Part shown: piece by piece, positions 3,269-18,694 of the stretch
How the letters are laid out: every line of letters starts with the position of its first letter
Position numbering within the stretch: the stretch's first letter is position 1
Source: Candidatus Bathyanammoxibius amoris
GTDB lineage: Bacteria; Planctomycetota; Brocadiia; Brocadiales; Bathyanammoxibiaceae
Assembly (NCBI GenBank): GCA_024451685.1
Contig: JAMXCW010000002.1
Location: 75,042 to 107,041 of the forward strand
DNA length: 32,000 bases
Reading direction: 5' to 3'
Notes under the pieces: generated by a model
Database searches by the model: none
What the model saw: only the letters and a program-made list of their open reading frames with translations
What the model was told of the DNA's origin: nothing
Position numbers and translations under genes: made by a program

Positions 3269-3298
3269 TTGACAATGCCGTTGAGGCTGTGGTATATG
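3269..3298 (+). promoter_or_regulatory. putative sigma70-type promoter for locus A (ACP operon)
   Basis: TTGACA at 3269-3274, then an 18-nt spacer to TATATG at 3293-3298 (or a 17-nt spacer to GTATAT). About 90 nt upstream of the ACP start. Sequence match only. Confidence 0.4.
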
Positions 3299-3389
3299 TT
3301 AGTTTCTTAAAGGGGCTGGGGCTTATTTTATCATTGTCTGTCGCTTTGTCCGATTTGGCATCTTACATAGCACTATAAGGAGGGGAGTT

Positions 3390-3662
3390 TTGAACGTAGA
3401 AGAGATTGAAAAGGAAGTGACGTCCATTGTTGCGGAAGTAACGGAGCTAGAGAGGGACGAGATTTGGAACAAGAGAGACGCCAATTTCTTTAAGGAACTA
3501 GAGATAGACTCCCTTTTAGCCCTGGAGATATTAGCGCTTATTGAAAAGAAGTTCAAGATTCAAATACCAGAAGAAAAGTTGGTAGATATAACATCTTTGA
3601 CCGCTACCATTAACATGACCAAAGATGTGCTGGCCGAGAGCGGAAGGCTGCAGGAAGCTTAG
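3390..3662 (+). CDS. acyl carrier protein, dedicated (amxACP-like)
   Basis: 90 aa. Phosphopantetheine attachment motif LEIDSLLALEI. TTG start with AAGGAGGGGA 4-13 nt upstream. An FF dipeptide (ANFFKELEIDSL) sits where E. coli AcpP has FV. Confidence 0.9.
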   Translation: MNVEEIEKEVTSIVAEVTELERDEIWNKRDANFFKELEIDSLLALEILALIEKKFKIQIPEEKLVDITSLTATINMTKDVLAESGRLQEA

Positions 3663-3697
3663 GCCCAAGAGGCTTGGCCAGAGGGGCCTACAAGACC

Positions 3698-4153
3698 ATG
3701 GATTTCGAGGAGGTAAAGAAGCTCGTCCCGCAAAGGTATCCCTTCCTATTCATAGATAAAGTTGTTGAATTAGAGGAGGGGAAGAGAATCGTCTGCCTCA
3801 AAAATGTTTCTGCGAACGAACCTTTCTTCGTCGGACACTTTCCGGAATACGCCATAATGCCCGGCGTCCTTACCTTGGAAGCCCTGGCCCAGGCATCCAT
3901 AATACTCTTCAAAAAAAGCTTCAAGCAGGACGACAGCCCGGACGCGGTCTTCCTGCTGGCCTCCGCAAAAGTAACCTTTGTAAAGCCTGTCTTCCCCGGG
4001 GATCAACTATACCTGGAGATAGACATAGAAAAGGTTATCTCTAATGCCGCCATTGTGAGTGGCATCGCAAGGGTCGGGGAAAACACAGTCGCCAAGACCA
4101 CTTTGACCTTCGCGACGGCCGATAAAACTTCACTTGGTAAAGGTCGGGAGTAG
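3698..4153 (+). CDS. fabZ: 3-hydroxyacyl-ACP dehydratase
   Basis: The hot-dog dehydratase signature [14 protein letters not shown]...[26 protein letters not shown] carries the catalytic His (GHFP) and Glu (LEALAQ). The track ORF begins at TTG 3674, but ATG 3698 gives the canonical N-terminus [16 protein letters not shown]. Confidence 0.9.
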
Positions 4154-4154
4154 C

Positions 4155-5378
4155 ATGAACACGCGTATAGTTATCACCGGTATAGGTGCGATAACTCCTA
4201 TCGGTTCAACCAAGGATGGCGCGTTTTGGGATGCGGTAGTTTCGGGCAAATCCGGTGTTAGCGATGTTACGTGCTTTGACACGTCCCAGCATAAGGTCCA
4301 CAAGGGCTGTGAGGTGAAGGACTTTGACTATCACGACTATACGGATAACGGCTCGGTCGGGAAAACAGGGAGGGGGTCTCAGCTTGCAGTGGCAGCCACC
4401 AAGCTGGCGCTTGAGGATTCAGGACTGAAACTGGACGAGGTAGACCCCGAGAGGATAGGTGTCTCTGTCGGGACGACCGGCGGTGAGATACAAATACTCG
4501 AAAGAATAGACCACCTCAGACACGAAAAGGAAGAGAGCCAGATAGACAGGCAGCTCTTTCTGCTGCACCCGTGCAATAATATACCCGCCAACATAGCCCG
4601 GGCATTCGGGTTTAAAGGCCCCAACACCATAATACCTACCGCATGCGCGGCGGGCAATTATGCAATCGGTTATGCCTGTGACCTCATAAAGATGGGGAGG
4701 GTGGATTTTATGTTTGCTGGCGGTTCCGACCCGTTTTCAAAGGTCGCTTTTACGGGTTTCAGCCGCCTGGCCGCGGTGGCACCGGACGTATGTCGTCCCT
4801 TCGACAAGAACCGCAAAGGGATGTTGATTGGAGAGGGCGCGGGTATGCTGCTGCTGGAGTCGCTCGACGGTGCGCGGGCAAGGGGGGCCGACATTTATGC
4901 GGAGATTATAGGCTACGGTCTGAGTTGCGATGGCTACCACATCACCATTCCCCATCCTGAGGGCCTCGGCGTAATCTCTTGCGTTAAAAAGGCCCTTCAA
5001 GACGCACGGATTAACCCTGAGGACGTGCAGTACATAAGCGCCCACGGCACGGGTACTGTCGCAAACGATAAAGCTGAAACCATTTCCATAAAAAAGGTCT
5101 TCGGTGAACATGCCGGGAACCTCATGGTGAGTTCTATAAAATCCATGATGGGTCACACTATGGGCGCCGCAAGTGCAATAGAGACGATTGCTTGTGCGCT
5201 GATAGTCAAAGAGGATAAAGTCCCGCCAACCATAAACTACGAGACGAAGGACCCTGAATGCGACCTGGACTATGTACCCAACGTTTCAAGAGAGCGCCGC
5301 GTAGACATCGCCCTTAATACCGCGTACGCCTTTGGTGGTAATAACAGTTGCCTGGTGGTCAAGAAGTTTCTTAATTAA
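4155..5378 (+). CDS. beta-ketoacyl-ACP synthase, FabF-like, catalytic triad intact
   Basis: The Cys-His-His triad is present: [48 protein letters not shown] 4155 lies 1 nt after the fabZ stop. The track start at 4134 (TTG) overlaps fabZ. Confidence 0.9.
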
Positions 5379-5459
5379 ATCACCAACAGGAAGGTTGAGT
5401 TATAATAATTCTCATCCAACCGTTTTTTCGTCTTTGACCGCTTTGAGACAAACAGACAG

Positions 5460-6689
5460 ATGGAAGAAAGAGTAGTAGTTACAGGTATAAGCATTATAAG
5501 CCCGCTCGGCGTGGGCAAGGACAGCTTCTGGGAAAACCTGCAGAACGGTGTCTCCGGCATAAGACCCGTAACCCTTTTTGAAGTGGACGGGTGCAGTTCC
5601 AAGAATGCCGGCGAAATACCGGACTTCGACCCCAGCAAGTTCCTGGGCAAGAAGGGTATCCGGCACTTTGACAGGACGTCGCTGCTGGTAACCGCAGCCT
5701 CAAGTCTCTGCGTCGAGGATGCCGCCGTCAAAGGCGTATATGAAGAGGACGACATGGGCATCGTCCTCGGTTCGACCTTTGGAAGTATCGACAGCATAAG
5801 CAATTTTGACATGGACTCTCTTAACGAGGGGCCTAATTACGTCAACCCGATGGCCTTCCCCAACACGGTCTTAAACGCTCCCGCCAGCCGTGCCTCAATA
5901 TTCTGTCAGGCCAAGGGGCTTAATTCCACCATATCCACGGGTGAATCCAGCGGCGTGGACGCTATTATGTGCGCATCCGACTTCCTCAGGCTCGGCAGGG
6001 TAAAGGCCGTGCTGACTGGCGGTGCGCACGGACTTACGCGGGAAATATTCCACTCTTCCAGCAAGGCCGGTGTGCTGTCGGGGAGCAAGAATACCGGCGG
6101 CAATGAGATTTGTGCTCCTTTCGATAAGAGACGCAACGGCATAGTTTTGGGCGAGGGTGTGGCCATGCTGCTGCTTGAATGTCTGGAGAATGCGCAGGCA
6201 AGAAATGCGAAGATATACGCCGAGATTAAGGGCTATGGCACCAGCTTTAACCCCGGCTGGGACAATAGCGGAGACATGGGCGGCGGTATGAGGGCCAATT
6301 CCCTGGCGCTCGCCAGCGCCGGACTCAAGCCGGAAGATATTTGCCTGATATACGCCAACGCCAATTCAAGCGTAAACGGTGACCGGATGGAGACCGTCGT
6401 TATAAAGGAATCCTTCGGCGACCTCGCAAAGAATATACCCGTAAGCGCGATAAAGTCCATGACCGGAGATTGCCTGGATGCATCAGGGGCGATGCAATGC
6501 GTGGCGTCCGTCATGTCAATCAACACGGGAATTATCCCTCCTACAATCAATTACAAAGAGTCAGACCCCGGCTGCGACCTGGACTACGTGCCAAACAAAA
6601 AGAGGCAGGCACAGATAGACAACGTGCTCGTGGAATCGTTCTCCTATACGGGCAACTGCTCTGCCCTGGTAATGTCCAAATACTCCTAG
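5460..6689 (+). CDS. KS-like protein lacking the whole catalytic triad (chain-length-factor-like partner)
   Basis: Full-length thiolase/KS fold (VVVTGISIISPLG...). Hand alignment to the upstream KS and to E. coli FabF motifs gives Cys->Glu (STISTGESSGVDAI), His->Asn (IYANANSSVNGD) and His->Asp (SAIKSMTGDCLDASGA). Confidence 0.85.
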   Translation: MEERVVVTGISIISPLGVGKDSFWENLQNGVSGIRPVTLFEVDGCSSKNAGEIPDFDPSKFLGKKGIRHFDRTSLLVTAASSLCVEDAAVKGVYEEDDMGIVLGSTFGSIDSISNFDMDSLNEGPNYVNPMAFPNTVLNAPASRASIFCQAKGLNSTISTGESSGVDAIMCASDFLRLGRVKAVLTGGAHGLTREIFHSSSKAGVLSGSKNTGGNEICAPFDKRRNGIVLGEGVAMLLLECLENAQARNAKIYAEIKGYGTSFNPGWDNSGDMGGGMRANSLALASAGLKPEDICLIYANANSSVNGDRMETVVIKESFGDLAKNIPVSAIKSMTGDCLDASGAMQCVASVMSINTGIIPPTINYKESDPGCDLDYVPNKKRQAQIDNVLVESFSYTGNCSALVMSKYS

Positions 6690-6691
6690 AA

Positions 6692-8122
6692 ATGGCGGAC
6701 AACGGCCTTTCTATAAAAAAGAGTGAACTCCGGAGTAAATACGACGTTATCGTAATCGGTGCGGGTATCGGGGGGCTCGTCGCGGGCGCCTTCCTCGCCA
6801 AAAGCGGAAAGAACACACTGGTAGTAGAACAGCACAACATCCCCGGCGGCTACTGCACGTCGTTTAAACGGGGCGGGTTCATCTTTGATTCCGCCGTTCA
6901 CCACATCGGGGGTTGCAGTAAGTACAGTATAGTGGGCAGGTGCCTGAAGGAATTAGGGATAGATATGGAATTCTACAGGCTCGACCCCATGGACACCCTC
7001 ACCTTCCCCTCGTTCTCCATAGACATACCGGCGGACATCGAGACCTACAAGTCCTCCCTGCAACAGAGATACCCGGCCGAGAAGGAAAACGTGTCCAGGT
7101 TCTTCAGTGAATTCATAAAACTCTACCGGGCGATAATAAACGAATCTGAGAAGAGCCCGACACTCGAAAAGTACAGGGGGCGTACTTATCAGGCCATGCT
7201 GGACGACTTCTTCGATGACACGGAGCTGAAGACCGCGCTGGCGGGGCAGTGGGGGTATCTTGGCACGCCCGCGCGCGAGCTTTCAAGCGTCGGCATGTGC
7301 CAGATGCTGGTAAACTATCTCAGAGACGGCGCCTTCTATCCCAAGGGCGGCACTCAAAACTTTGCAGACGCCTTCGCACGATGCATAAGAGACTCAGGCG
7401 GAGACCTGCTCCTGTCTTCAAAGGTGGAAGAGATACTACTCAAGGGCAACCGTGTGGCCGGGGTAAAGCTGGACGGGGGTGACAGGGAGATTGGGGCGGA
7501 GCATATCGTCTCAAATATTGACGCGGGACAGACGTTTTTTGAACTGATAAAGGAAGAGGTTGACCCCGTCTATCTTGAAAGAATGAGAGGGATGAGAGAA
7601 AGCCCTTCATATTTCCTCCTGTATCTCGGCCTTGACCCTGAGGTTGACCTGAGTAGATTCAAAAGAGGCTTTTATCACAGCCCTGACGACCAGTGGAAGT
7701 ATATATCGGCCCCGACAAACGTGGACAAATCCCTGGCCACAAAACTCCGGCAGGAGATAACCGTAGTAGCCACGCTGGATGAAAAGTACGACCAGATTGA
7801 GGACTGGAAGGGCTTGAAAGATAGGTTGACCAGGTGTACAATAAGTTACCTTGAAGATCTTGTGCCAAACCTTAACAGGCACATCGAGGTAGTGGAGGCG
7901 GCCACACCAAAGACCCTCTGGCGGTACACGCTCAACTCAAAGGGGGCCGCGTACGGGTGGGCCGTCACGCTTGAGCAGTCCGGACCGGACAGGCTTGGCA
8001 ATAAAACACCGGTAGGGGGTTTATATCTGGCCGGACATTGGACAAACCCGGGACCAGGCGTCTGCGCCGTTGTGTCCTCGGGTTGGCGCGTGGCAAACAT
8101 GATATTGAGAAACGGGAGATAA
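6692..8122 (+). CDS. FAD-dependent desaturase/oxidoreductase, phytoene desaturase (CrtI)/amine-oxidase family
   Basis: N-terminal dinucleotide fold YDVIVIGAGIGGLVAGAFLAKSGKNTLVVEQHNIPGGY. CrtI-like C-terminus GGLYLAGHWTNPGPGVCAVVSSG. ATG 6692 lies 2 nt after the preceding stop. The track start at 6470 overlaps the KS-like gene and is rejected. Confidence 0.8.
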   Translation: MADNGLSIKKSELRSKYDVIVIGAGIGGLVAGAFLAKSGKNTLVVEQHNIPGGYCTSFKRGGFIFDSAVHHIGGCSKYSIVGRCLKELGIDMEFYRLDPMDTLTFPSFSIDIPADIETYKSSLQQRYPAEKENVSRFFSEFIKLYRAIINESEKSPTLEKYRGRTYQAMLDDFFDDTELKTALAGQWGYLGTPARELSSVGMCQMLVNYLRDGAFYPKGGTQNFADAFARCIRDSGGDLLLSSKVEEILLKGNRVAGVKLDGGDREIGAEHIVSNIDAGQTFFELIKEEVDPVYLERMRGMRESPSYFLLYLGLDPEVDLSRFKRGFYHSPDDQWKYISAPTNVDKSLATKLRQEITVVATLDEKYDQIEDWKGLKDRLTRCTISYLEDLVPNLNRHIEVVEAATPKTLWRYTLNSKGAAYGWAVTLEQSGPDRLGNKTPVGGLYLAGHWTNPGPGVCAVVSSGWRVANMILRNGR

Positions 8123-8127
8123 AGGTT

Positions 8128-9573
8128 ATGAAGAAGATAATGCTGGTAAACCCTCATCCTCCAGGCCGTCACGGTGAGGAGAGCATAAGCGTGATAGTCC
8201 AGATGCCCCTGAATCTGGCCTACATCGCCGCCCTCACGCCGGGCGACGATTGGGAGTTCGATGTAGTTGACGAAAACCTCGAGCTTGCAATGGATGAGAA
8301 TGGAGAGGACATAACCTTTGACCCGCCGGATATAGTCGCGCTTACCGCGCTCACCTATCAGGCTCCCAGGGCATACCAGATAGCCCGGGCCGCCAAGAAA
8401 CACGGCTGTACCACAATAATGGGCGGCATCCACGCCTCCGTGTGTGCGGAAGAGACCCTGCAGTACGTGGACACGGTCGTAACCGGAGAGGCGGAGAACG
8501 TCTGGCCGCAGGTGATAAAGGACTTTGAGAACGGAAAGTTGCAGAGACGCTACGACGGCGGACTCCCCAACCTCTCAGTACTCAAAAATATATATCCCGA
8601 TAGAGAACTTCTGAAGAAAAAGTACGGCTACAAGTTCTCTTCTATAATAACTACTAAAGGCTGTCCCAACCGCTGCGATTTCTGCAGCGTGCCCACCTTC
8701 CAGGGCCAGAAGTTCCGGGAGAGACCGTACGAAGACGTGCTCGACGAGATGGCGGCTACGGACTATAAGGGGCTGATGTTTGCTGAGGACAACTTCTACG
8801 GCCACAGCGACGCCTCCGCGCGGCGCGCCAAACACCTCTTCCAGGGCATGATTGACAGGGGCCTGAAGAAGGACTGGCTCGGCTTTACCGCCCTCAACAT
8901 CTCTCATGACGCCGAGGCCCTCGACCTGATGGCAAAGTCCGGCAACTTCGGTTTTCTCGTCGGCATAGAAAGCACCAACGAAGAGGTGTTGAAGAAAATG
9001 GGTAAGCGGGTGAATTTGAGACTTGGGACCACTAATTATAAAGAATGTATAAGGAAGATACATGATGCGGGTCTCCTCGTCTGGGCCTCGGTGGTATTCG
9101 GCGCCGACGGCGATGGCAAGGATTCGTTCAAGAAGATGGTGGATTTCGTACACGACAGCAAGGTGGACATACTGACCTACGGCCTTGACTGCCCGTTCCC
9201 CAAGACGCCGCTCTTCTACAGGCTCGATTCAGAGAAACGGCTCTTCCGGAGAAATCTGCCGGAGGACTGGGTATATTACGAGACCGCCCATATGGTCCAC
9301 AGGTTCGTTGACATGACCCTGGACGATTTCGTGGACGGCATGCAGTACGTCTACGACCACGTATACGCGGGTGACAACGTCCGCAAGAGGTTCAGGACAA
9401 CCATACAGGAGACCGGCAACCCCCGCAACTCCATGTTCGCCCTCAGGGTGGGTCAGGACTGGGACCAAGTCTTTTTGCAGGTTTTGGACAACCTGCACGA
9501 ACTCCAGGAATCCGGCGATTATTATAAAGACACCTACACCACGCAGGAAAAGACCATCTCCATCCCCGCGTAG
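8128..9573 (+). CDS. B12-binding-domain radical SAM enzyme (paralog 1)
   Basis: Radical SAM cluster motif TTKGCPNRCDFCSVP (CxxxCxxC). N-terminal Rossmann-like B12-binding-type domain (IMLVNPHP...DIVALTALTYQAPRAYQIARAAKKHGCTTIMGGIHAS). ATG 8128 with GGGAGA 9 nt upstream, 5 nt after the desaturase stop. Confidence 0.85.
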   Translation: MKKIMLVNPHPPGRHGEESISVIVQMPLNLAYIAALTPGDDWEFDVVDENLELAMDENGEDITFDPPDIVALTALTYQAPRAYQIARAAKKHGCTTIMGGIHASVCAEETLQYVDTVVTGEAENVWPQVIKDFENGKLQRRYDGGLPNLSVLKNIYPDRELLKKKYGYKFSSIITTKGCPNRCDFCSVPTFQGQKFRERPYEDVLDEMAATDYKGLMFAEDNFYGHSDASARRAKHLFQGMIDRGLKKDWLGFTALNISHDAEALDLMAKSGNFGFLVGIESTNEEVLKKMGKRVNLRLGTTNYKECIRKIHDAGLLVWASVVFGADGDGKDSFKKMVDFVHDSKVDILTYGLDCPFPKTPLFYRLDSEKRLFRRNLPEDWVYYETAHMVHRFVDMTLDDFVDGMQYVYDHVYAGDNVRKRFRTTIQETGNPRNSMFALRVGQDWDQVFLQVLDNLHELQESGDYYKDTYTTQEKTISIPA

Positions 9574-9607
9574 TATCGCTGCATATTATCAGACCAACAA
9601 ATAATGT

Positions 9608-9639
9608 AGGGGCACGGCAATGCCGCGCCCCTTTGTTTT
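9608..9639 (+). terminator. rho-independent terminator of locus A
   Basis: AGGGGCACGGC-AAT-GCCGCGCCCCT forms a stem of 6+4 bp with one internal mismatch. It is followed by TTTGTTTT and lies 35 nt after the radical SAM stop. Confidence 0.7.
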
Positions 9640-9663
9640 ATCTATTCCTCAACAATTATGCGT

Positions 9664-10829: not shown

Positions 10830-11174
10830 TTATTCTCCCGTTGGGAATATCATCGTATCGAGGTCTTTTACCAGTTGATACATCCTGCGGGCGTCTTGCA
10901 GGGCCTGTTCCTGGTTTACAAGCGGTATTATCTCTATCTTTGTAAACAGGGGGAACAGCGGCAGCTTTGTCACAATCGCCTCTATCTCCGCGTGGTCGTC
11001 CGCGTCAAAGATGGCCGCCGCGCCGCGGCGCCCGGCCAGTTTGCCGCCTGCCAGGACTTTCCCCCTCTTCTTCATCCTCTCGTAGAACTCCCATTCCTTT
11101 ATCAAGAGTTGAAAGAAATCCCTGACCGGCATCTGGTTAATCTTTTCTATCTCTACCTTTACTAGAAATAGCAT
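10830..11174 (-). CDS. muconolactone delta-isomerase-fold (MIase family) protein
   Basis: 114 aa. MLFLVKVEIE...IFDADDHAEIEAIVTKLPLFPLFTKIEIIPL parallels CatC-type muconolactone isomerases as I remember them (MLFxVxM...N..YSIFDV.S.EELH.LL..LPLFPYM.IEV.PL). GAGGTG RBS 7 nt upstream. Confidence 0.6.
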   Translation of the reverse strand: MLFLVKVEIEKINQMPVRDFFQLLIKEWEFYERMKKRGKVLAGGKLAGRRGAAAIFDADDHAEIEAIVTKLPLFPLFTKIEIIPLVNQEQALQDARRMYQLVKDLDTMIFPTGE

Positions 11175-12121: not shown

Positions 12122-12128
12122 TGGCAAA

Positions 12129-14135
12129 TTATACAGTAAGTCCTATCTTAAAGCCTTCATGGATCGCCTCCATCGCGGTCCTTACCTGCACGCAGTCGCC
12201 GATAGTATATATCTCAGGCACGAGACCGTTAAGGTGTTTATGGAGCGAGTCGTCGGATATGTACCCGGTAGCAATTATCACCGTTTCCGCGGGTATAAAA
12301 GTCTCCCGGCCGTCCTTTTCATACAACACGCCGCTCTCTGGCTCCTCTTTGACTTCCTTTACCTTTACGGTCGTGACGGCCTTTATGCCTGCGCCCTCCA
12401 TCTCCCTTTCCATCACCCAGCGTGTGGATATCCCGAAACCGCCGGCGACTCTCCTCTTCATCTCGAGAATGGTGACGTTCCTGTGGCCCCTTGAGGATTT
12501 TTCCAATGCGGTCGGCAGGTCTATTATATCATTCTTTAGCAAGAACATCGCCACATCCGGTTTCATACTGCCCAGCTTGGCCACGTAGAGGGCCGTCTCA
12601 CTGCCTACCGTCCCGCCGCCTATTATAACAACCTCACGGCCAACCGGCACCCTCCCGTCCAGTACGTCCTTCGCCAGCACGATGTTATTCCCGTTTATCC
12701 CCGGAATCGGCGGGATGGACGGCGTTGAACCAGTTGACAGTATCAGCACGTTCGGTTTTTCCTTCTTGATTATATCCGGGTTTGCCTCAACGCCCAGGAC
12801 GACCTTCACCTTTTCCTTCTTTATCTGTCTTTCCAGATATTTTATAACGTTTACAAACTCCTCGCGGCCAGGGGGCTTGTAGGCATAGTGCAACTGACCC
12901 CCAAGGATTTTTTCTTTCTCATACAGTGTTACGTCATGGCCTCTCAGCGCGGCCACCCGGGCCGCCTCCATTCCTCCGGGACCGCCCCCTACAACAAGGA
13001 TCTTCCTCTTCTTTGCCGCCGGTGTTATGGTATATTCTTTTTCCCTCCCTGCCCTGGGATTGTACAGGCAGGTGACGGCCCTCATGTTCAAGAGTTCATC
13101 AAAGCAGCCCTGGTTGCATGCTATACACGTCCTTATGTCCTCAAGCCTGCCTTCCTTATATTTATTGGGCAGCTCTGGGTCCGCTATGAGCGGTCTGCCG
13201 ATGGATACCAGGTCTGTCTGCCCGTCCCTGAGCAGCTCTTCCGCAACGGTAAGGTCATTTATCCTGACAGCCGCTATTACGGGTATGTCCACGTTTTCTT
13301 TGATGGAGGTTGCCAGAACCACGTAAGCGGTTCTGGGGATTACCATCAGCATTACGGGTACCTTGCTTTCGTGCCACCCCGGCGACACGTGGAAGGCGTC
13401 CACGCCGAGTCCGGCAAGTCTCTGGGCGATTTGTATATTGTCCTTAATCTTCAGACCGCCCTCCATCAGCTCATCCCCGGAGAGTCTAAAGATTACGGGA
13501 AAATCCTCCCCAGCGGTCTCTTTGACGGCCTCTATGGTTTCAACGGCAAAGCGCAGCCTTTTCTCCGGGCTGCCGCCGTACTCGTCGTTTCTTTTATTGC
13601 TTATTGGTGAGAGGAACTGGTTGATGAGGTATCCCATGCCGCCGTGAATCTCTACGGCATCGAAGCCCGCGTCTTTGGCCCTTTTTGCGGCCAGGGCGTA
13701 GTTTTGTATTACCTGTTTTATCTCCGGGATGCTTAAGGCCCTGGACGTGTCTCTGGCCAGTCGTGAGGGCACGCTCGATGCCGATACGGGCTGCATCTTT
13801 GAGAACAGGCTTGAGGCATAACGCCCGCCATGGAGTATCTGGGCAGCGGCCTTTGTGCCGTGACGGTGCATAGCCCCGGTGAATCTGGCGAGTGAGGGGA
13901 TGTAGCGGTCGTCGTCCAGCCCGAGGATGCTCTTCCACGCCTTGCCGTTCTGTTCCGGATAGCACCCGCCGACAACGATGAGCCCCACACCTCCGTCGGC
14001 CCTCTCCGTATAGAAATCAACAAAACGGTCATTGACAAAGCCGCCGGTAGTGAAGCCAAGGTCCATTGCCGTCATCACGAGACGGTTTTCCAGCTGCAAC
14101 GGGCCTATATTTATTGTGTTAAACAGGCTGACCAT
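12129..14135 (-). CDS. FadH-type 2,4-dienoyl-thioester reductase-like flavoprotein (OYE FMN barrel + 4Fe-4S + FAD/NAD(P)H domains)
   Basis: 668 aa. N-terminal OYE-like barrel (GFDAVEIHGGMGYLINQFLSP). Cys motif CIACNQGCFDELLNMRAVTC (Cx2Cx3Cx11C, as in E. coli FadH). C-terminal Rossmann folds ILVVGGGPGGMEAA and VVIIGGGTVGSETA. Confidence 0.85.
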   Translation of the reverse strand: MVSLFNTINIGPLQLENRLVMTAMDLGFTTGGFVNDRFVDFYTERADGGVGLIVVGGCYPEQNGKAWKSILGLDDDRYIPSLARFTGAMHRHGTKAAAQILHGGRYASSLFSKMQPVSASSVPSRLARDTSRALSIPEIKQVIQNYALAAKRAKDAGFDAVEIHGGMGYLINQFLSPISNKRNDEYGGSPEKRLRFAVETIEAVKETAGEDFPVIFRLSGDELMEGGLKIKDNIQIAQRLAGLGVDAFHVSPGWHESKVPVMLMVIPRTAYVVLATSIKENVDIPVIAAVRINDLTVAEELLRDGQTDLVSIGRPLIADPELPNKYKEGRLEDIRTCIACNQGCFDELLNMRAVTCLYNPRAGREKEYTITPAAKKRKILVVGGGPGGMEAARVAALRGHDVTLYEKEKILGGQLHYAYKPPGREEFVNVIKYLERQIKKEKVKVVLGVEANPDIIKKEKPNVLILSTGSTPSIPPIPGINGNNIVLAKDVLDGRVPVGREVVIIGGGTVGSETALYVAKLGSMKPDVAMFLLKNDIIDLPTALEKSSRGHRNVTILEMKRRVAGGFGISTRWVMEREMEGAGIKAVTTVKVKEVKEEPESGVLYEKDGRETFIPAETVIIATGYISDDSLHKHLNGLVPEIYTIGDCVQVRTAMEAIHEGFKIGLTV

Positions 14136-14152
14136 GTCTCAAGTGTGGAGCA

Positions 14153-14185
14153 CAAAAAATAAAGAAGCAGGGCAAAAGGCCCTGC
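14153..14185 (-). terminator. rho-independent terminator inside locus B (between the KS-like partner and the FadH-like gene)
   Basis: On the minus strand, GCAGGGC-CTTTT-GCCCTGC (perfect 7-bp stem) is followed by TTCTTTATTTTTTG. It starts 30 nt after the stop at 14216 and ends 17 nt before the ATG at 14135. Confidence 0.55.
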
Positions 14186-14215
14186 CGCGCGATATTATAA
14201 CCATTGAAAATGAAA

Positions 14216-15457
14216 TTACATATCACTTTTTTCCACTACGAGGCTGGTGCAGTTTCCATTCAGGTCGAGAGAGTTGACTATTGCCACCTTTATGTCCTGT
14301 TTAAGCTCGTCCCCCAGTACGAAATTCAGCTCGCACTCAGGGTCCGGCACCTTGTAGTTCCTCATCGGAGGGATGGTCGATTTTTCCATGGCCAGCAGGC
14401 AAAAGGCCATTTGCATCGCCCCTGATGCGCCGTAACACTCACCGGTCTGAGACTTTATAGAACTTACCGGTACGTCTCTCAAGCCGTCTCCCAGCAGCGC
14501 TTTAACGGCCCTGGCCTCTATGAGGTCCGTCTGCTTTGAAGAATTACCGTTTGCGCAGATAAGCCCCAAGGAATCCTTTGATTGTCCGGCCTGTTCAAGA
14601 GCCTGCTCCATGGTATTTTTCACTCTCTCTGTCTTTTCTTCCAGGCTGAACCTCCTGGCTCCCATGTAAGCTAGTCCGTGACCGGTGAGCTCCGCATATA
14701 CGCGGGCTCCCCGCCTGCGTGCATATTCCATGTCCTCTATGACAAACACGTAACTGCCCTCACCGAGGATGAAGCCGTTCCTGCGCTTATCAAACGGGGC
14801 GCTTATCTCTGGTTCAGAGTCCTGCGAACCAGCCAGAAGTTTTTGCATAAGAAAGATGATGTAACTGTCGAGCGAGATTTGTTCCACCCCGCCGGCAATG
14901 AGCACATCCACCCTGTTTGTCTGTATCAAGCTAAAGGCGTCGCCGATAGCGTCGGCGCTGGACGTGAATCCTGAGGTAATTGTCCTTGAAGGACCGGTGA
15001 GTTTAAAAAATACTGAAGCAAAGTTTGTAGAGGAATTCAGTGCCACGTCATAGCTGTCCATGGGAAGGAGCTTTTCAGGCCCGCGTTTAAGGATCTCATA
15101 CGTATAATCCGTTGTCTGTGGGTAATTGCCGAGGGCTGAACCTATTACAACGCCCGTGTCATCAGGACAGTGATTGCCGTTCTGGAAGAGTTTAGCGTCT
15201 TCGAGGGCAAGTTTCGTTGCAGACGCAAGAAATTTGGTACCCTTTGTCAGATATTTAAGGCCCTTGTCACCGAGATATTCAGAGGGATTCAGGCCCTTTA
15301 CTTCCGCAGCCAGTTTACAAGGATACCCGGAGACGTCAAGGGACGTGATCGGGGCGATACCGGAATGGCCTCCGGCAAGATTCTTCCAGAATTCCTCATG
15401 CCCAAACCCCAGCGGAGAGATTATACCGATGCCAGTTATTACGGTCCTTTTCTTCAT
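14216..15457 (-). CDS. KS-like protein lacking the whole catalytic triad (second chain-length-factor-like partner)
   Basis: 413 aa KS fold. Cys->Phe (RTITSGFTSSADAIG), His->Asn (ICANGNSSKQTD), His->Glu (SSIKSQTGECYGASGA). Its ATG overlaps the upstream KS stop (ATGA at 15454-15457). Confidence 0.85.
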   Translation of the reverse strand: MKKRTVITGIGIISPLGFGHEEFWKNLAGGHSGIAPITSLDVSGYPCKLAAEVKGLNPSEYLGDKGLKYLTKGTKFLASATKLALEDAKLFQNGNHCPDDTGVVIGSALGNYPQTTDYTYEILKRGPEKLLPMDSYDVALNSSTNFASVFFKLTGPSRTITSGFTSSADAIGDAFSLIQTNRVDVLIAGGVEQISLDSYIIFLMQKLLAGSQDSEPEISAPFDKRRNGFILGEGSYVFVIEDMEYARRRGARVYAELTGHGLAYMGARRFSLEEKTERVKNTMEQALEQAGQSKDSLGLICANGNSSKQTDLIEARAVKALLGDGLRDVPVSSIKSQTGECYGASGAMQMAFCLLAMEKSTIPPMRNYKVPDPECELNFVLGDELKQDIKVAIVNSLDLNGNCTSLVVEKSDM

Positions 15458-16659
15458 ACCCTACCAAAAACAACGCTGGCATTATTACCGCCAAAGGCAA
15501 ACGAGTTATTCAAGGCGAATCTAACCTCTTTGTTTCTTGCCTCATTAGGCACGCAATCCAGGTCGCATTCCGGGTCCTTTGTCTCGTAGTTTATCGTCGG
15601 GGGGAGTTCTCCAAACTTTATGGCCAGGCAGCACACGGCAGACTCAATGGCGCTTGCCGCTCCCATGGTGTGGCCGATCATTGACTTTACCGAGCTGCAT
15701 GGAATCTGCGGGGTTCTCTCTTTAAAGACCGTCTTGACTGCAAGGGTTTCCATTTTGTCATTCAGCGGCGTGCCTGTGCCGTGCGCGCTTATATAATCTA
15801 CGTCCTCATACGAAAGCTTGGCGCATCCCAGTGCCGCCTCCATTGCCCTGATAGCGCCTTCCCCTTTAGGATGGGGAGCGGTCATGTGAAAACCGTCGCT
15901 GCTGAGACCGTAGCCCTTTACTTCAGCATATGTGTTCGCGCCGCGTTTTGTTGCATGCTCCAGAGTCTCAAGTATCAGCATCCCCGCGCCGGCCCCCACG
16001 ACCAGACCCTGTCTGTTTTTATCAAACGGCTGGCATTTCTCCGGCGCCAGGGCCTTCAGGTTGTGGAAGTGCGTAAATTCAGTTTGCGGTACTATGTCGC
16101 TTCCGCCGACTACCATTGCGTTAACCTTTCCTTCCTGCAGCATGTCAAAGGCCCAGCACAGGGCATGGTTTCCGGAGGAGCAGGCGTTAATCAGAATGAT
16201 ATTGGGACCTTCTACGTGAAAATCTTCTGCCAGCTGAGTCGATAAGGTCGCCGGGGGATAACGCAGGACCACGTCCAGACTAAACCCGGAGGCCTTGTCA
16301 CGGGGGTTGTCCCTTAGCTTATGCTCAAAGGCGGAGAGTTCTCCGGCAAGCGTTCCTATGGACATACCGACTTTATCTATTTCCAGGCCCTTGTAGTCAA
16401 ATATGCCGCTATCTTGAAGCGCCTCCCTGGTAGCTACGTAAAGACAATCGTAAACAGTATATCCGTTCTTGGATGGTGGGGTACCGTTGGAGTTCAGACT
16501 TTTTAACTCACAGGCACGGTGAACCTTGTATCTGGAGGTGTCAAAGGTGGTAATTTCCGAGACACCATCCCGGCCATTAAGCATTGCTTCCCAGGATTTT
16601 TTTCTGTCCGAACCAATGGCCGTTACCAAGCCGAGGCCTGTCACAACTACTCTGGGCAT
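15454..16659 (-). CDS. beta-ketoacyl-ACP synthase, FabF-like, catalytic triad intact (second copy)
   Basis: 401 aa. IILINACSSGNHAL (Cys), [15 protein letters not shown] (His), [16 protein letters not shown] (His). Starts 16 nt after the radical SAM stop. Confidence 0.9.
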   Translation of the reverse strand: MPRVVVTGLGLVTAIGSDRKKSWEAMLNGRDGVSEITTFDTSRYKVHRACELKSLNSNGTPPSKNGYTVYDCLYVATREALQDSGIFDYKGLEIDKVGMSIGTLAGELSAFEHKLRDNPRDKASGFSLDVVLRYPPATLSTQLAEDFHVEGPNIILINACSSGNHALCWAFDMLQEGKVNAMVVGGSDIVPQTEFTHFHNLKALAPEKCQPFDKNRQGLVVGAGAGMLILETLEHATKRGANTYAEVKGYGLSSDGFHMTAPHPKGEGAIRAMEAALGCAKLSYEDVDYISAHGTGTPLNDKMETLAVKTVFKERTPQIPCSSVKSMIGHTMGAASAIESAVCCLAIKFGELPPTINYETKDPECDLDCVPNEARNKEVRFALNNSFAFGGNNASVVFGRV

Positions 16660-16675
16660 GATATGGATATCTCTT

Positions 16676-18157
16676 CTAAAAGACCTTCGTGGTTATCAGG
16701 CTGGAGGATTCGTTAAATCTTTCCTTCTTCCCTATCCGGCCCAGGGCCTCCTGGTACTTCCCGGAGGCCTCCAATTTTTGCAGGTTTTCTATGAAATGTG
16801 CGATGACTTCCCGCCAGTCCCAGTTGACCTTGAGGGCAAACATGGCGGAGTTGTTATTGTTCAAGGCCTGCCTCGAGTTTTGGAATCTCGCCCTGATGGA
16901 CTCGGTGGACCATAGCCGCTGCTGCAGGCGCTGTAACCCCTCGGTAAGCTCCTGAATGGAGAGATTGTTAAGGATGTGGACAAGGTGGTGAGACGTGTAA
17001 TATACCCAATCCTCGGGGAAGTTCGTACGGAAAAGCCTGTTACCACCCTCCAGACGTTTGTAAAGGGGGGTATTGATAAACGGGCAAAGTATGCCGCATG
17101 TCATTATGTCAAGGTTGGAACCCAGCACAAATTCCGATACCTCGTCAAAGGTGTCTATAGTGTCGGCATCATTGCCAAATATCACGGTACCCCAGACGGC
17201 TATGCCGTGTTTGCGAATGTTCTTAATGGCTTCATAATATTTATCTATGGTTATCCTCAGGTTGACGTGTTTGTTCATCGATTCCAGGGCTTCTTTATTC
17301 AGTGACTCTATCCCTATTAGCACCCCCACACAACCACTCCTGACCATGTAATCCAGGGTCTCGTCGTCCCTGAATATATTAAGTGACGTAAAACCGAACC
17401 AGTTCTGGTAGATGCCCCTTTCCACCATCTCTTTAAAGAGATTCCTGACCCTGTCGTTTGATTTTTTACTATGGCCGTAAAAATTCTCGTCGGTGAGCAC
17501 CAGCCCCCGGAACTGGCCCTGAATAGCCTCCATCTCGTCAAGCACGTCCTCTACGGGCCTCTCACGGTATTTGCGGCCCTGGGATTGAGGGACGGAGCAA
17601 AACTCACAACTGAAGGGGCACCCGGCAGATGTGGTTATTCCGGAGTAACGGTATTTATATTTCTTCTTCAGAAATTCCCTGTCGGGGTAAACTAACTTCA
17701 GATTTTCCAGCGGTGTAAGGCCGCCTTCGTAAAATTTCTGAAGACGTCCCTGTTCAAAATCCGACAGCAGCTTGTCCCAGATGGAAACGGCCTCTCTCTG
17801 TACGACACAATCTACGTGCTCGGCCACCTCATTGGGATAAATAGTCGCATGCACACCGCCCATTATTACCGGGATTTCCCTCTTCCGGCAGGCAGCGGCG
17901 ATCTGATAGGCACGCGGGGCCTGATAACTGACGGACGTTATCCCCACCAGATCCGCTCCCGGGAAACACAGGTTGCCGTTTTCGTCTACGGCGCTCTCCT
18001 CGGTTTCGTCTATTACGTCAACCTCCCAGCTATCCGGGGTCAGAGATACCAGGTAGCCCAGGTTTACAGGCATCTGGGCCAACACAGAGACGTTCTCCTC
18101 ACCGACGTTTCCTATCGGATGGGGATTTATAAGCACAAGTTTTCTTTTGCTTATCAT
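16676..18157 (-). CDS. B12-binding-domain radical SAM enzyme (paralog 2)
   Basis: 493 aa, colinear with the 8128-9573 product. Shared blocks include NPHP, YQAPRAYQIA, IMGG(I/V)HA, YPDRE(L/F)LKKKY and the CxxxCxxC motif TTSAGCPFSCEFCSVP. I estimate roughly half the residues are identical, by eye. Confidence 0.85.
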   Translation of the reverse strand: MISKRKLVLINPHPIGNVGEENVSVLAQMPVNLGYLVSLTPDSWEVDVIDETEESAVDENGNLCFPGADLVGITSVSYQAPRAYQIAAACRKREIPVIMGGVHATIYPNEVAEHVDCVVQREAVSIWDKLLSDFEQGRLQKFYEGGLTPLENLKLVYPDREFLKKKYKYRYSGITTSAGCPFSCEFCSVPQSQGRKYRERPVEDVLDEMEAIQGQFRGLVLTDENFYGHSKKSNDRVRNLFKEMVERGIYQNWFGFTSLNIFRDDETLDYMVRSGCVGVLIGIESLNKEALESMNKHVNLRITIDKYYEAIKNIRKHGIAVWGTVIFGNDADTIDTFDEVSEFVLGSNLDIMTCGILCPFINTPLYKRLEGGNRLFRTNFPEDWVYYTSHHLVHILNNLSIQELTEGLQRLQQRLWSTESIRARFQNSRQALNNNNSAMFALKVNWDWREVIAHFIENLQKLEASGKYQEALGRIGKKERFNESSSLITTKVF

Positions 18158-18249
18158 TATGTTTCTTTTTCCCGGTATTCTCTTACGTATAAACTCTACG
18201 CTGGATTGTGCCCTCTGGTAAGAACCTTACACACCGGGTGACACTCCCA

Positions 18250-18615
18250 TCAATACGCGCCAGTCACCAATAATACCTGCCCTATGGCGTGGTCTTTTGT
18301 GTGGGTTATTGATACGTCCCATGAGCCGACACCCTTTTCCTCGGCGAGTTCCTTCGCCCTCCCATAAAGTTTAAGGTAAGGACGTCCCGAGGAATCATTG
18401 AGCAACTCAATATCTGTCCACTTCATCCCCGTACCCAGGGCCTTTACCACCGCCTCTTTTACGGCAAACCTGGCGGCCAGGTGTTCAAACTTATTCCTCT
18501 TAGAGAGGCTGTACTCTACCTCCCTGGGGGTGTATATGCGGTCAATAAAGGATTCGTAACGGGTAAAAAGGTCTTTAATTCTTCCAACTTCCACCAGGTC
18601 GATGCCTATGTACAC
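18250..18615 (-). CDS. acpS: holo-ACP synthase (4'-phosphopantetheinyl transferase)
   Basis: 121 aa. IGIDLVEVGRI, RFAVKEAVVKALG and WDVSITHTKDHA are typical AcpS blocks. GTG start with GGGGAG 8 nt upstream. Confidence 0.9.
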   Translation of the reverse strand: MYIGIDLVEVGRIKDLFTRYESFIDRIYTPREVEYSLSKRNKFEHLAARFAVKEAVVKALGTGMKWTDIELLNDSSGRPYLKLYGRAKELAEEKGVGSWDVSITHTKDHAIGQVLLVTGAY

Positions 18616-18665
18616 ACCGATACTCCCCTAGAACTCCTCAAGAGAAAAATAACCCGTGTGTAGGG

Positions 18666-18694
18666 ATTCTATCTATTGTAGTAACAGTTGTCAA
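18666..18694 (-). promoter_or_regulatory. putative sigma70 promoter for locus B (acpS operon)
   Basis: On the minus strand: TTGACA (18694-18689), a 17-nt spacer, then TAGAAT (18671-18666). About 50 nt upstream of the acpS start. Confidence 0.5.

Follow-up and report, generated by a model that had tools for sequence, protein, structure and literature searches.

The window analysed here, a 32,000-nucleotide stretch of contig JAMXCW010000002.1 from Candidatus Bathyanammoxibius amoris, carries two of the four candidate ladderane clusters of Kuenenia stuttgartiensis set tail to tail. We favour, at a probability of roughly 0.6, a reading in which the two loci, A and B, act jointly, and their most likely product, judged from sequence, is the ladderane tail of anammoxosome lipids. 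The window adds a further member to a candidate system that is already known but still unproven; it is not a new system. No ladderanes were obtained when 34 Kuenenia candidates were expressed in E. coli (PMC4790861), and no candidate gene has been linked to ladderanes by experiment (PMC10139942, PMC13459092); an earlier sequence-only reading of this DNA had described an unresolved pathway and failed heterologous expression, and the literature agrees (PMC4790861, PMC10139942, PMC13459092).

The ORF listing, the Pfam and NCBIfam scans and gene calling done independently on the source contig yielded 14 genes in two convergent blocks, with the domain content that the sequence-only reading had assigned. 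Locus A occupies 3390–9573 on the plus strand, and locus B begins with four genes running from 18615 to 14216 on the minus strand. As had been claimed, each locus has its own ketosynthase (KS) pair, with Cys-His-Lys-His columns in both KS and the triad lost in both partners, and its own radical SAM (rSAM) paralogue, the two being 48% identical. FabD, FabH, FabI, thioesterase and acyltransferase domains were likewise absent from the other window ORFs scanned; the description of the pathway as self-contained went too far, since FabD and an enoyl reductase must be supplied elsewhere.

The uncultured source is a member of the Brocadiales nearest to Ca. Bathyanammoxibiaceae. Its best-matching proteins carry the label Ca. 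Brocadiales (99% and 88% identity), so that, on the question of whether best hits lie mainly in organisms making no ladderanes, the reading stands. Among the comparison loci, L003 from the Bathyanammoxibiaceae MAG RIFCSPHIGHO2_12_FULL_52_36 (GC 0.52) shows 67–84% identity to the window. Members of this family carry hzsABC, and hydrazine-synthase genes are reported missing from that incomplete MAG; the paper PMC9723696 on Bathyanammoxibiaceae makes no mention of ladderanes or lipids. No hzs or hdh genes lie within the window, and the source is presumed to be an anammox bacterium from its relatives and the literature.

On gene order and identities of 65–83% to solved proteins, locus A is assigned as the orthologue of Kuenenia Cluster I (kuste3603–3608), with which it shares the same six-gene order, a closer relation than the likeness previously noted. 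It opens with an amxACP-type acyl carrier protein orthologous to Kuste3603 (3390..3662, plus strand; PF00550, E 1e-12), which matches K. stuttgartiensis amxACP (7auf) at ~83% identity (E 5e-40, against ~1e-6 for canonical ACPs). The amxFabZ-type 3-hydroxyacyl-ACP dehydratase that follows (kuste3604 orthologue; 3674..4153, plus; PF07977) shares ~75% identity with amxFabZ (7qv0/8ayi), at an E-value of 2e-64 where canonical FabZ proteins give ~1e-31. The amxFabF2-type ketosynthase (kuste3605; 4155..5378, plus; Pfam KS N- and C-terminal domains, catalytic residues intact) is ~75% identical to 9s5h_B (E 1e-203), and its chain-length-factor-like inactive partner of amxFabFmut type (kuste3606; 5460..6689, plus) is ~65% identical to 9s5h_C (E 3e-157), with Glu/Asn/Lys/Asp at the catalytic columns, identical in L003. 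Next comes a CrtI/amine-oxidase-family FAD protein ('phytoene dehydrogenase-like', kuste3607 type; 6692..8122, plus; PF01593 and PF13450), which scores 159 bits against TIGR02734 (crtI_fam), below the cutoff of 238, and is 59–81% identical to its counterparts in Brocadiales loci and 42–46% in non-anammox loci. The last gene encodes a cobalamin-type (class B) rSAM enzyme (kuste3608 type; 8128..9573, plus; PF02310 and PF04055, CPNRCDFC motif), sharing 71% identity with Kuenenia protein P0015 and 99% with a protein from a Ca. Brocadiales MAG; against TIGR04072 it reaches 75 bits (cutoff 360). Intergenic gaps are 11, 1, 81, 2 and 5 nt; the supposed overlap of FabZ with the first KS does not exist, the latter beginning at 4155. 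Locus A is closed by a putative terminator between the convergent loci, a strong GC-rich palindromic hairpin (9608..9632, assigned to neither strand) with an 11-bp stem of which nine pairs are GC, T-runs on either side and TTTGTTTT next on the plus strand.

The four-gene core with which locus B begins is, by the same kind of comparison, the orthologue of a second Kuenenia candidate cluster, kuste2802–2805. A Sigma-70-like promoter match lies upstream (18666..18694, minus; TTGACA-17-TAGAAT, 11/12 matches, a consensus match only). The holo-ACP synthase AcpS (kuste2802 type; 18250..18615, minus; PF01648, E 5e-19) is 55–69% identical to its counterparts in L004, L005 and L090 and is the first gene of the cluster every time; to call it a private PPTase was an overstatement, Kuste2802 being the sole acpS listed for the Kuenenia genome (Table 1, PMC2649909). 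It is followed by a second cobalamin-type rSAM enzyme (kuste2803 type; 16676..18157, minus; PF04055 and PF02310, CPFSCEFC motif), 66–86% identical to those of L004, L005, L090, L093 and L095, a type set apart as its own clade (100% bootstrap) in a neighbour-joining tree. The KS (kuste2804 type; 15454..16659, minus; Pfam KS domains) is 47% identical to that of locus A and 57–80% to those of the same five loci, and both KS enzymes are predicted from their catalytic columns to be active. It overlaps by 4 nt the chain-length-factor-like inactive KS (Kuste2805 type; 14216..15457, minus; Pfam KS domains), whose columns read Phe/Asn/Lys/Glu, as in L004, L005, L090 and L093; Kuste2805 carries the same diagnostic signature as Phe163, Asn298 and Glu333 (Table 2, PMC2649909). 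This signature, the recurrence of the gene set in a Brocadia sp. genome and Ca. Subterrananammoxibius, and gene functions matching those given for kuste2802–2805 (PMC4790861) support the assignment. Since that cluster is already published as a candidate (PMC2649909, PMC4790861), neither the second KS pair nor the second rSAM is a new addition to the candidate set, as the sequence-only reading had taken them to be.

Beyond this core, locus B continues with a FadH-like two-domain flavoprotein (12129..14135, minus), which combines an OYE FMN domain (PF00724, E 5e-76) with an FAD/NAD(P) domain (PF07992, Pyr_redox_2) and a C-x2-C-x3-C-x11-C motif and meets no NCBIfam equivalog cutoff. Its orthologues in Kuenenia, Brocadia and Scalindua are 58–62% identical, and the gene adjoins the dead KS on its downstream side in L005, L090, L093 and L095. 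A FabG-type 3-oxoacyl-ACP reductase of the SDR family (11301..12044, minus; PF13561, PF00106 and PF08659) recurs in L082, L085, L090, L091, L092, L093 and L095. The 114-residue muconolactone-isomerase (MIase)-fold protein (10830..11174, minus; PF02426, E 5.5e-14; TIGR03221 39.6 bits, below the cutoff of 130.6) is the best conserved of the locus B proteins, at 85–91% identity in L090 and L095, 65–67% in L092 and L093 and 42% in L091; its homologues bear the names Ca. Scalinduaceae and Ca. Scalindua sediminis, and none turned up under the names Kuenenia, Brocadia or Jettenia. Last is a 237-residue signal-peptide protein, secreted or anchored (10055..10768, minus), with a C-terminal zinc ribbon as its only Pfam hits. 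It is 48% identical in L095, where its neighbours reach 79–91%, was found in neither L090 nor any other locus compared, and is probably not a pathway member.

The arrangement of the two loci varies between genomes. They converge in the window and likewise in L095 (86% rSAM identity), diverge in L093 and are colinear in L085 and L091, and the colinear clusters hold one FabZ and one FabG alongside two KS/chain-length factor (CLF) pairs. Adjacency in several genomes and three orientations suggests that A and B function together. The proposal that their juxtaposition reveals which further genes belong to the pathway survives in part: the linkage is seen again in independent genomes, as are FabG and the MIase-fold gene, and FadH has its orthologues in Kuenenia, Brocadia and Scalindua, but the secreted protein does not recur and the MIase-fold protein was not met under the Kuenenia, Brocadia or Jettenia names. 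In the literature searched we did not find the physical linkage of A and B in several lineages and three orientations, the ~60% identical FadH-like orthologues, the isomerase-fold protein in Scalinduaceae, or Cluster-I-type or twin clusters in MAGs labelled Acidobacteria, Myxococcota or Planctomycetota.

In the proposed mechanism, AcpS would load the dedicated amxACP, and in each locus the active KS and its inactive partner would form a KS/CLF heterodimer. A single shared FabG and a single shared FabZ would convert beta-keto to enoyl groups, giving short unsaturated chains on the ACP, and the CrtI-like flavoprotein, FadH-like dienoyl-type reductase and isomerase-fold protein may determine how many double bonds there are and where they lie. 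The two cobalamin-type rSAM paralogues could then form C–C bonds, either closing rings or joining two separately built pieces; two KS/CLF pairs and two rSAMs would fit the published model of two parts built separately and later joined. Of these steps, only KS/CLF, ACP and FabZ biochemistry has been demonstrated in any organism. In Brocadia fulgida, the pair orthologous to that of locus A is a KS/CLF heterodimer that self-primes by malonyl-ACP decarboxylation and, in crosslinking assays, prefers C6 and C8 over long C16 (bioRxiv 10.64898/2026.05.19.726425); amxFabZ prefers chains of up to C6–C8 (PMC10139942), and the B12-type rSAM enzymes GrsA and GrsB make rings in lipid tails (PMC13459092).

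Clusters outside the anammox lineage bear on the nature of the product. Cluster-I-type and twin clusters occur in MAGs of GC 0.57–0.67 labelled Acidobacteria, Planctomycetota and Myxococcota, which are not known ladderane producers: L082 ('Acidobacteria bacterium 13_1_40CM_2_60_7', GC 0.60) lies beside glycoside hydrolases, L085 is from Planctomycetota (GC 0.57), L087 from Myxococcota (GC 0.67), and L091 (GC 0.66) also holds Polyketide_cyc2, FGE-sulfatase, extra KS pairs and a CHS/FabH-like gene. These carriers argue against a cassette exclusive to anammox bacteria, and twin architecture in genomes unlike theirs makes it a weaker ladderane diagnostic. They would fit a widespread type-II-PKS-like pathway to another specialised lipid or polyene, such as a polyunsaturated or differently cyclised acyl chain, with the cassette inherited or acquired by anammox bacteria and the rings made by other genes, for instance kuste3335–3352 with their own rSAM and methyltransferase genes. 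Also consistent with such a product are the synteny that Rattray et al. found between other Kuenenia lipid clusters and Desulfotalea, a producer of polyunsaturated hydrocarbons but not of ladderanes, the antiSMASH 'ladderane' clusters whose presence and expression are reported from many non-anammox phyla (PMC9902471), and the position of both rSAMs outside TIGR04072 ('rSAM_ladder_B12'). We nevertheless consider it unlikely: the Brocadiales versions form tight clades (99–100% bootstrap) kept in all anammox families sampled, Kuenenia expresses Cluster I highly (PMC4790861, PMC10139942), and what the other carriers make could be a related compound. In the neighbour-joining trees deep nodes lack support, so the second KS/CLF/rSAM sets of the non-anammox clusters can be matched to locus B only tentatively; in L085 each of the two rSAMs has the other as its nearest relative.

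The adjacency itself might instead be a lineage-specific rearrangement without function, with locus B an independent unit around a housekeeping AcpS, as the single acpS listed for Kuenenia would allow, and FadH, FabG and the MIase-fold gene ordinary neighbours. A and B are unlinked in Kuenenia and in L002, L003, L004, L005 and L090 (7–10 kb of flank available), and the Kuenenia FadH gene sits beside an enoyl-CoA hydratase. Against a joint unit there is also a terminator-like hairpin that separates FadH from the dead KS of locus B (14166..14186, minus; 8-bp stem, six GC pairs, tail TCTTTATTTT). Locus B, claimed as a single operon, is co-directional throughout, but this hairpin splits the core from FadH–FabG–MIase, and the locus may therefore be two transcription units. 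Chance remains a poor explanation of linkage in three orientations among lineages whose proteins are only 40–70% identical; moreover, FabG and the MIase-fold gene accompany the KS/CLF/rSAM set in L090, L091, L092, L093 and L095, and locus B encodes neither an ACP nor a dehydratase and so depends on partners of the kind found in locus A. We regard functionless adjacency as distinctly improbable and retain joint action of A and B as the preferred reading.

Set against the known systems, the window differs in arrangement. The two Kuenenia clusters lie far apart (locus tags 36xx and 28xx, PMC2649909), whereas here they meet tail to tail. In both Brocadia and Kuenenia the clusters are distant and locus B ends at the dead KS, the AcpS–rSAM–KS–CLF core standing alone in Brocadia (L004); in the window locus B runs on, with FadH next to a dead KS where that of Kuenenia is distant from every KS. 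The longer form seen here, which retains the FadH-like, FabG and isomerase-fold genes, is probably ancestral.

Locus A, on the + strand, encodes an acyl carrier protein (ACP, 3390-3662), FabZ (3674-4153), an active ketosynthase (KS, 4155-5378), a KS paralogue without the catalytic triad (dead KS, 5460-6689), a flavoprotein of the CrtI/amine-oxidase family (6692-8122) and a radical SAM (rSAM) enzyme with a B12 domain (8128-9573). Read as ACP-FabZ-FabF2-FabFmut-PDH-like-B12 rSAM on a single strand, this arrangement matches the order and orientation of Cluster I, KustE3603-3608, which comprises amxACP, amxFabZ, amxFabF2, amxFabFmut, a phytoene-dehydrogenase-like protein and a B12 rSAM (bioRxiv 10.64898/2026.05.19.726425; PMC10139942). 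Three homologous loci from other genomes, L002, L003 and L095, share the Cluster I order. The locus A ACP is ~83% identical to Kuenenia stuttgartiensis amxACP (Kuste3603, 7auf; E 5e-40), canonical ACPs reaching just ~1e-6, and FabZ is ~75% identical to amxFabZ (7qv0, 8ayi; E 2e-64), compared with ~1e-31 (4e-31) for canonical FabZ. The KS and dead KS match chain B (~75% identity, E 1e-203) and chain C (~65%, E 3e-157) of 9s5h, presumably the entry for the amxFabF2/amxFabFmut heterodimer that the 2026 preprint describes. At 71% and 72% identity, the rSAM matches a Kuenenia and a Brocadia protein, respectively. Because locus A matches both the solved amx structures and the published gene list, the sequence comparison is decisive in placing it as a Cluster I orthologue. 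The sequence-only reading had pointed to a resemblance to kuste3603-3608 and proposed a ladderane candidate cluster; the resemblance is real, with the same order and 65-83% identity to solved amx proteins, and the proposal is right as a statement of orthology. Ladderane synthesis has been shown for no Cluster I member (PMC10139942, PMC13459092).

Locus B, on the - strand, encodes AcpS (18615-18250), a second B12 rSAM (18157-16676), an active KS (16659-15454) and its own dead KS (15457-14216), a FadH-like two-domain OYE/FAD protein (14135-12129), FabG (12044-11301), a muconolactone-isomerase-fold (MIase-fold) protein of 114 aa (11174-10830) and a secreted protein of 237 aa (10768-10055) that carries a signal peptide and has a zinc ribbon at its C-terminus. 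The first four genes stand in the order of kuste2802-2805, in which Kuste2802 is acpS, Kuste2803 a B12-domain rSAM and Kuste2805 a non-canonical FabB with Phe163, Asn298 and Glu333 (PMC2649909), and which Javidpour et al. give as 'a complete cluster' (PMC4790861). At 49-75% identity, the order AcpS-rSAM-KS-dead KS is common to L004 (Brocadia sp., GC 0.453), where unrelated genes come after; L005 (Ca. Subterrananammoxibius californiae, GC 0.441), which continues into FadH; and L090 (a 460-kb contig, GC 0.449), which continues through FadH, FabG and an 85% identical MIase-fold gene and carries this block alone. The locus B dead KS has the exact Phe/Asn/Glu of Kuste2805, as do its counterparts in these three loci and in L093 (a 5.1-Mb contig, GC 0.34). 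Locus B, initially read as new, opens with four genes that make up the second published candidate cluster, kuste2802-2805. Neither kuste2804 nor kuste2805 is mentioned in the 2026 preprint (bioRxiv 10.64898/2026.05.19.726425). AcpS probably serves the whole cell as its holo-ACP synthase and is not private to the pathway.

Aligned with one another, the four KS-like proteins of the window show Cys/His/Lys/His in the catalytic columns of both active KS, Glu/Asn/Lys/Asp in the triad-less paralogue of locus A and Phe/Asn/Lys/Glu in that of locus B. Between the loci, the KS are 47%, the dead KS 37% and the rSAMs 48% identical. Adjacency, together with the 4-nt overlap in locus B, leads us to infer that both pairs would form active/inactive heterodimers of a KS and a chain-length-factor-like paralogue (CLF). 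The locus A pair has B. fulgida orthologues that do form a KS/CLF heterodimer; this amxFabF2/amxFabFmut complex decarboxylates malonyl-amxACP and, in crosslinking assays, favours C6 and C8 over long C16 substrates (bioRxiv 10.64898/2026.05.19.726425). In neighbour-joining trees, run with 100 bootstraps, the sequences fall into KS1, KS2, CLF1 and CLF2 groups that include non-anammox genes, with weak deep support. In the locus A-type dead KS, Glu takes the place of the catalytic Cys and Asp that of the second His, both in the window (5460-6689) and in Bathyanammoxibiaceae (L003, 4277-5503); in Brocadiaceae (L002, 1540-2745), Val and Glu occupy those positions. The locus B type is Phe/Asn/Lys/Glu without exception across the Brocadiales-type loci seen.

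Both rSAMs carry PF02310 and PF04055 and a CX3CX2C core, with the motifs CPNRCDFC and CPFSCEFC; the PF02310 match of the locus B enzyme (31.4 bits) falls just below the cutoff of 32.1. By these features, both are class B rSAM enzymes, predicted to depend on cobalamin. Membership of TIGR04072 ('rSAM_ladder_B12') was rejected, at 74.7 bits for locus A and 83.3 bits for locus B against a cutoff of 360. In a neighbour-joining tree, likewise with 100 bootstraps, the Brocadiales A-type and B-type enzymes form tight clades (bootstrap 99% and 100%), and non-anammox sequences form separate groups on an unsupported backbone. We considered the second rSAM of a colinear Planctomycetota cluster, L085, as an orthologue of the locus B enzyme; because the two L085 rSAMs pair as sisters and the deep nodes are unsupported, this orthology is not claimed. 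A third Brocadiales paralogue clade (bootstrap 100%; L088 1-1353, L089 10001-11443) consists of single genes without a nearby KS, 53-56% identical to both window enzymes, in metagenome-assembled genomes (MAGs) labelled Brocadiaceae, Brocadiales, Ca. Tripitaka sp. and Hypogeohydataceae. A scan of genome contigs with the rSAM alignment used generic patterns (GCPxxCxFC among them), returned four close loci among the matches listed and missed Kuenenia, so it is unusable as a phyletic profile.

Beyond the published core, locus B continues into a FadH-like protein with PF00724 at residues 3-330 and PF07992 at residues 378-661. Its translation carries the four-Cys motif CIACNQGCFDELLNMRAVTC (C-x2-C-x3-C-x11-C), the motif assigned to the FadH Fe-S cluster. 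It scores below the NCBIfam equivalog cutoffs for mycofactocin OYE_2 (532 versus 793 bits), BaiCD (507 versus 825) and bilirubin reductase (474 versus 750). In four lineages, locus B has this gene attached, and orthologues at 58-62% identity are named Kuenenia stuttgartiensis, Brocadia spp. and Scalindua sp. In Kuenenia (L094, GC 0.408), the FadH-like gene (60% identical) lies away from any KS and is directly followed 3' by an enoyl-CoA hydratase (ECH, 12172-12978); a PlsY-type glycerol-3-phosphate acyltransferase (16713-17339) lies ~4 kb beyond. The MIase-fold protein matches the Pfam MIase domain at 52.5 bits (cutoff 26.7). It scores below the equivalog cutoff of TIGR03221 for muconolactone delta-isomerase (39.6 bits, cutoff 130.6), and among solved enzymes matches only at E 1e-4 (3znj) and 0.011 (1mli). 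Its homologues are named Ca. Bathyanammoxibius, Ca. Scalinduaceae and Ca. Scalindua sediminis; a word-indexed search, which relatives below ~45% identity may escape, gave zero with the names Kuenenia, Brocadia or Jettenia. The secreted zinc-ribbon protein was rejected as a pathway member, being 48% identical in L095, compared with 79-91% for its neighbours, and absent elsewhere. Term searches gave no 'dienoyl' or isomerase gene in Rattray 2009 (PMC2649909) and no 'dienoyl' gene in Javidpour 2016 (PMC4790861); the entries consulted in the latter's 34-gene E. coli table include no FadH-like, ECH or isomerase-fold gene.

The gene set, drawn from a six-frame ORF list, Pfam and NCBIfam scans and gene calls made independently for the source contig, agrees with the 14-gene layout and domain content first read from the sequence. 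Intergenic gaps are 1-81 nt in locus A and -4 to 126 nt in locus B. A palindromic hairpin with an 11-bp stem followed by TTTGTTTT (9608-9632) closes locus A, a terminator-like hairpin (14166-14186) lies between the dead KS and FadH of locus B, and a near-consensus promoter match lies 5' of AcpS. The 481-bp spacer between the convergent loci (9574-10054) is dense in GC-rich palindromes (9608-9632, ~9850-9900, 9945-9968 and 10027-10052) and matches no Rfam family. Near the rSAM genes, a search for a cobalamin riboswitch or other RNA element gave zero Rfam matches at gathering thresholds and zero tRNAs. A 340-aa ORF (9923-10945, +) antisense through the secreted-protein gene has neither domain nor homologue support and is probably spurious. 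The other window ORFs comprise an ATP synthase operon, aminotransferases, MatE, a pentapeptide-repeat protein, an amino-acid kinase, ornithine carbamoyltransferase (arginine biosynthesis), MlaE/F/D, RNase PH, Ham1 and LepA; FabD, FabH, FabI, a thioesterase and an acyltransferase are, as the sequence-only reading noted, not among them. The MlaE/MlaF/MlaD lipid-transport operon (22504-25062) lies ~4 kb past AcpS, and in L088 (Ca. Hypogeohydataceae) MlaD-MlaF-MlaE (1523-4245) directly adjoins the stand-alone rSAM, which belongs to the same family as the window enzymes. This proximity may be fortuitous or may reflect a tie to lipid trafficking.

The source is likely an anammox bacterium, a reading that its relatives, not the genes of the window, support; the hydrazine synthase and hydrazine dehydrogenase markers (hzs, hdh) are absent from the window genes. 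ENA ERZ23499028 scaffold_687 (49 kb) encodes an identical rSAM protein, as does a larger contig, and the closest proteins are named Ca. Brocadiales (99% and 88%), followed by Ca. Tripitaka californicus (80%). Among the matches listed, the closest species-representative locus is L003, from RIFCSPHIGHO2_12_FULL_52_36 (GC 0.52), 67-84% identical over Cluster I. After Cluster I, L003 carries a Rieske/cytochrome b/multihaem gene set, and such complexes are typical of anammox bacteria. RIFCSPHIGHO2_12_FULL_52_36 belongs to Ca. Bathyanammoxibiaceae, a family reported with hzsABC; it is an incomplete MAG from which the hydrazine-synthase genes themselves are reported missing (PMC9723696). The window GC of 0.527 fits Bathyanammoxibiaceae, not Kuenenia or Brocadia (about 0.40-0.45).

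The two loci are neighbours in several genomes. In the window (ENA scaffold_687, GC 0.527), A and B converge, and they converge in L095 (a 182-kb contig, GC 0.526), which is 75-91% identical to the window and shares its ATP-synthase and aminotransferase flank. Where the window has just the hairpin-rich spacer, L095, an 86%-identical relative, has a SIR2-domain gene (11496-12581). L093 is divergent: KS-FabZ-ACP is read in one direction and B-type rSAM-KS-CLF-FadH-ECH-FabG-MIase in the other, and its Cluster I appears rearranged. The L093 FabZ is 75% identical to the 8ayd entry, presumably S. brodae amxFabZ. Between the L093 MIase-fold gene and an opposite-strand A-type rSAM lie genes for a HEPN protein, a DDE transposase and a nucleotidyltransferase-like protein (10428-14132). 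L002 (Brocadiaceae, GC 0.395) and L003 (Bathyanammoxibiaceae, GC 0.521) have Cluster I, with locus B absent from the next 7-10 kb. From these layouts, we infer that the A-B neighbourhood is not universal yet recurs, in three orientations, convergent, divergent and, in the L085 and L091 clusters, colinear; we found no published description of the twin clusters or their linkage. That A and B behave as one unit across distant lineages argues for their joint expression.

Further rSAMs, 53-62% identical to the locus A enzyme, include some in similarly designed clusters of genomes that do not look anammox. L082 (GCA_036790625.1, GC 0.60), a protein of which is also named 'Acidobacteria bacterium 13_1_40CM_2_60_7', carries ACP-FabZ-KS-CLF-PDH-rSAM-FabG (PDH being the CrtI-like protein) with FabH opposite and glycoside hydrolases adjoining. 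L085 (GCA_008501825.1, QQUA01000023, Planctomycetota, GC 0.57) has a single operon, ACP-FabZ-KS-CLF-PDH-rSAM-rSAM-KS-short CLF-FabG, and L087 (a Myxococcota MAG, GC 0.67) has rSAM-rSAM-KS. On L092 (ENA ERZ27247351, GC 0.52), the order is rSAM-KS-CLF-ECH-FabG-MIase; ~2.5 kb from this locus-B-like module lie genes (5888-7410) for two phospholipid head-group enzymes, a CDP-alcohol phosphatidyltransferase and a phosphatidylserine decarboxylase. The metagenome contig L091 (JGI 3300082212, GC 0.66) holds an enlarged cassette (4101-21437) that reads ACP, FabZ, FGE-sulfatase, Polyketide_cyc2, KS, CLF, PDH, rSAM, rSAM, MIase, KS, CLF, ferredoxin, ECH, FabG, two more KS as a third KS pair and a chalcone-synthase (CHS)/FabH-like gene.

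Cluster I was described as 'encountered exclusively' in ladderane producers (PMC10139942). The presence of Cluster-I-like clusters in non-anammox-looking genomes implies that this exclusivity is limited to the close Brocadiales form and does not extend to the architecture; antiSMASH-type 'ladderane' clusters were already known from other phyla (PMC9902471). The twin cassette consists of two KS/CLF pairs, two cobalamin rSAMs, one ACP, FabZ, FabG, the CrtI-like flavoprotein and the isomerase-fold protein. A far-reaching and rather improbable extension is that it constitutes an old, mobile lipid-tail pathway beyond anammox, working in uncultured high-GC Planctomycetota, Acidobacteriota and Myxococcota to make ladderane-like or otherwise ring-strained lipids. 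Were this so, a ladderane-type biomarker would no longer be strict proof of anammox, the pathway could be solved in organisms that are easier to work with, and FadH-ECH and the isomerase-fold protein would be components missing from earlier reconstitution attempts.

Since 2002, the route to ladderanes has been an unsolved problem, and as of 2026 no ring-forming enzyme was known and no reconstitution had succeeded (a 2026 review; bioRxiv 10.64898/2026.05.19.726425). Orthology to the candidate clusters makes the window another copy of what was published in 2009 and does not solve this problem: the candidate system is already known and its function unproven, and the window is an added member from an uncultured, deep-branching lineage. 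In a possible scheme, the common FabG and FabZ would yield enoyl intermediates, with FabD and possibly an enoyl reductase supplied from elsewhere; amxFabZ prefers chains up to C6-C8 (PMC10139942). The CrtI-like, FadH-like and isomerase-fold proteins may set the double-bond pattern; kuste3607 does not replace CrtI. The rSAM paralogues could then form C-C bonds, for which B12-type rSAM ring synthases of archaeal lipids are a precedent, and the two KS/CLF pairs and two rSAMs would match the 'type b' model, in which two parts are built apart and then joined (PMC10139942). The FadH-like (with ECH in Kuenenia), FabG and isomerase-fold genes travel with both candidate clusters and appear to be missing from the 34 genes expressed in E. 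coli. Modest new leads are this FadH-ECH/FabG/MIase extension, the recurring A-B linkage and the non-anammox relatives, whose cassettes cast doubt on the exclusivity of Cluster I to ladderane producers.

Compared with Kuenenia Cluster I, locus A has intact and mutated catalytic triads at the same positions. It differs in its host, a different family-level uncultured lineage (GC 0.53 versus about 0.41); in the Glu/Asn/Asp of its dead KS, which is Val/Asn-or-Cys/Glu in the Brocadia and Kuenenia counterparts; and in adjoining a second candidate cluster. Locus B shares with kuste2802-2805 the gene order, the dead-KS substitutions and a B12-domain class B rSAM. The Brocadia version stops after the dead KS and the Kuenenia FadH-ECH pair is located elsewhere, whereas in locus B, L090, L093 and L095 (partly L005) the core continues into FadH-like, FabG and MIase-fold genes, to which L093 adds ECH.

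The wider comparisons are with type II polyketide synthases (PKS) and archaeal ring synthases. Type II PKS KS/CLF systems, including the highly reducing ishigamide pair Iga11/Iga12, likewise set an active KS beside an inactive paralogue and use discrete ACP, ketoreductase and dehydratase proteins, and the anammox orthologue has been shown to prime itself by decarboxylating malonyl-ACP, a type II PKS trait. In aromatic PKS CLFs, Gln replaces the catalytic Cys, whereas the window CLFs carry Glu (locus A) or Phe (locus B); the window system also has no cyclase or aromatase and is coupled to two cobalamin rSAMs and a CrtI-like flavoprotein. TIGR04072, named for ladderane-associated lipid clusters, describes the same broad B12 and rSAM class as the window enzymes, but these form a distinct subfamily without a matching curated model. 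The archaeal GDGT ring synthases GrsA/GrsB share with them an N-terminal B12-type Rossmann domain and the CX3CX2C core, and by analogy their role in lipid-tail ring formation is proposed for the window rSAMs. Grs acts on an isoprenoid tetraether to make cyclopentane rings, whereas the window candidates would act on an ACP-bound acyl chain to make cyclobutane rings.
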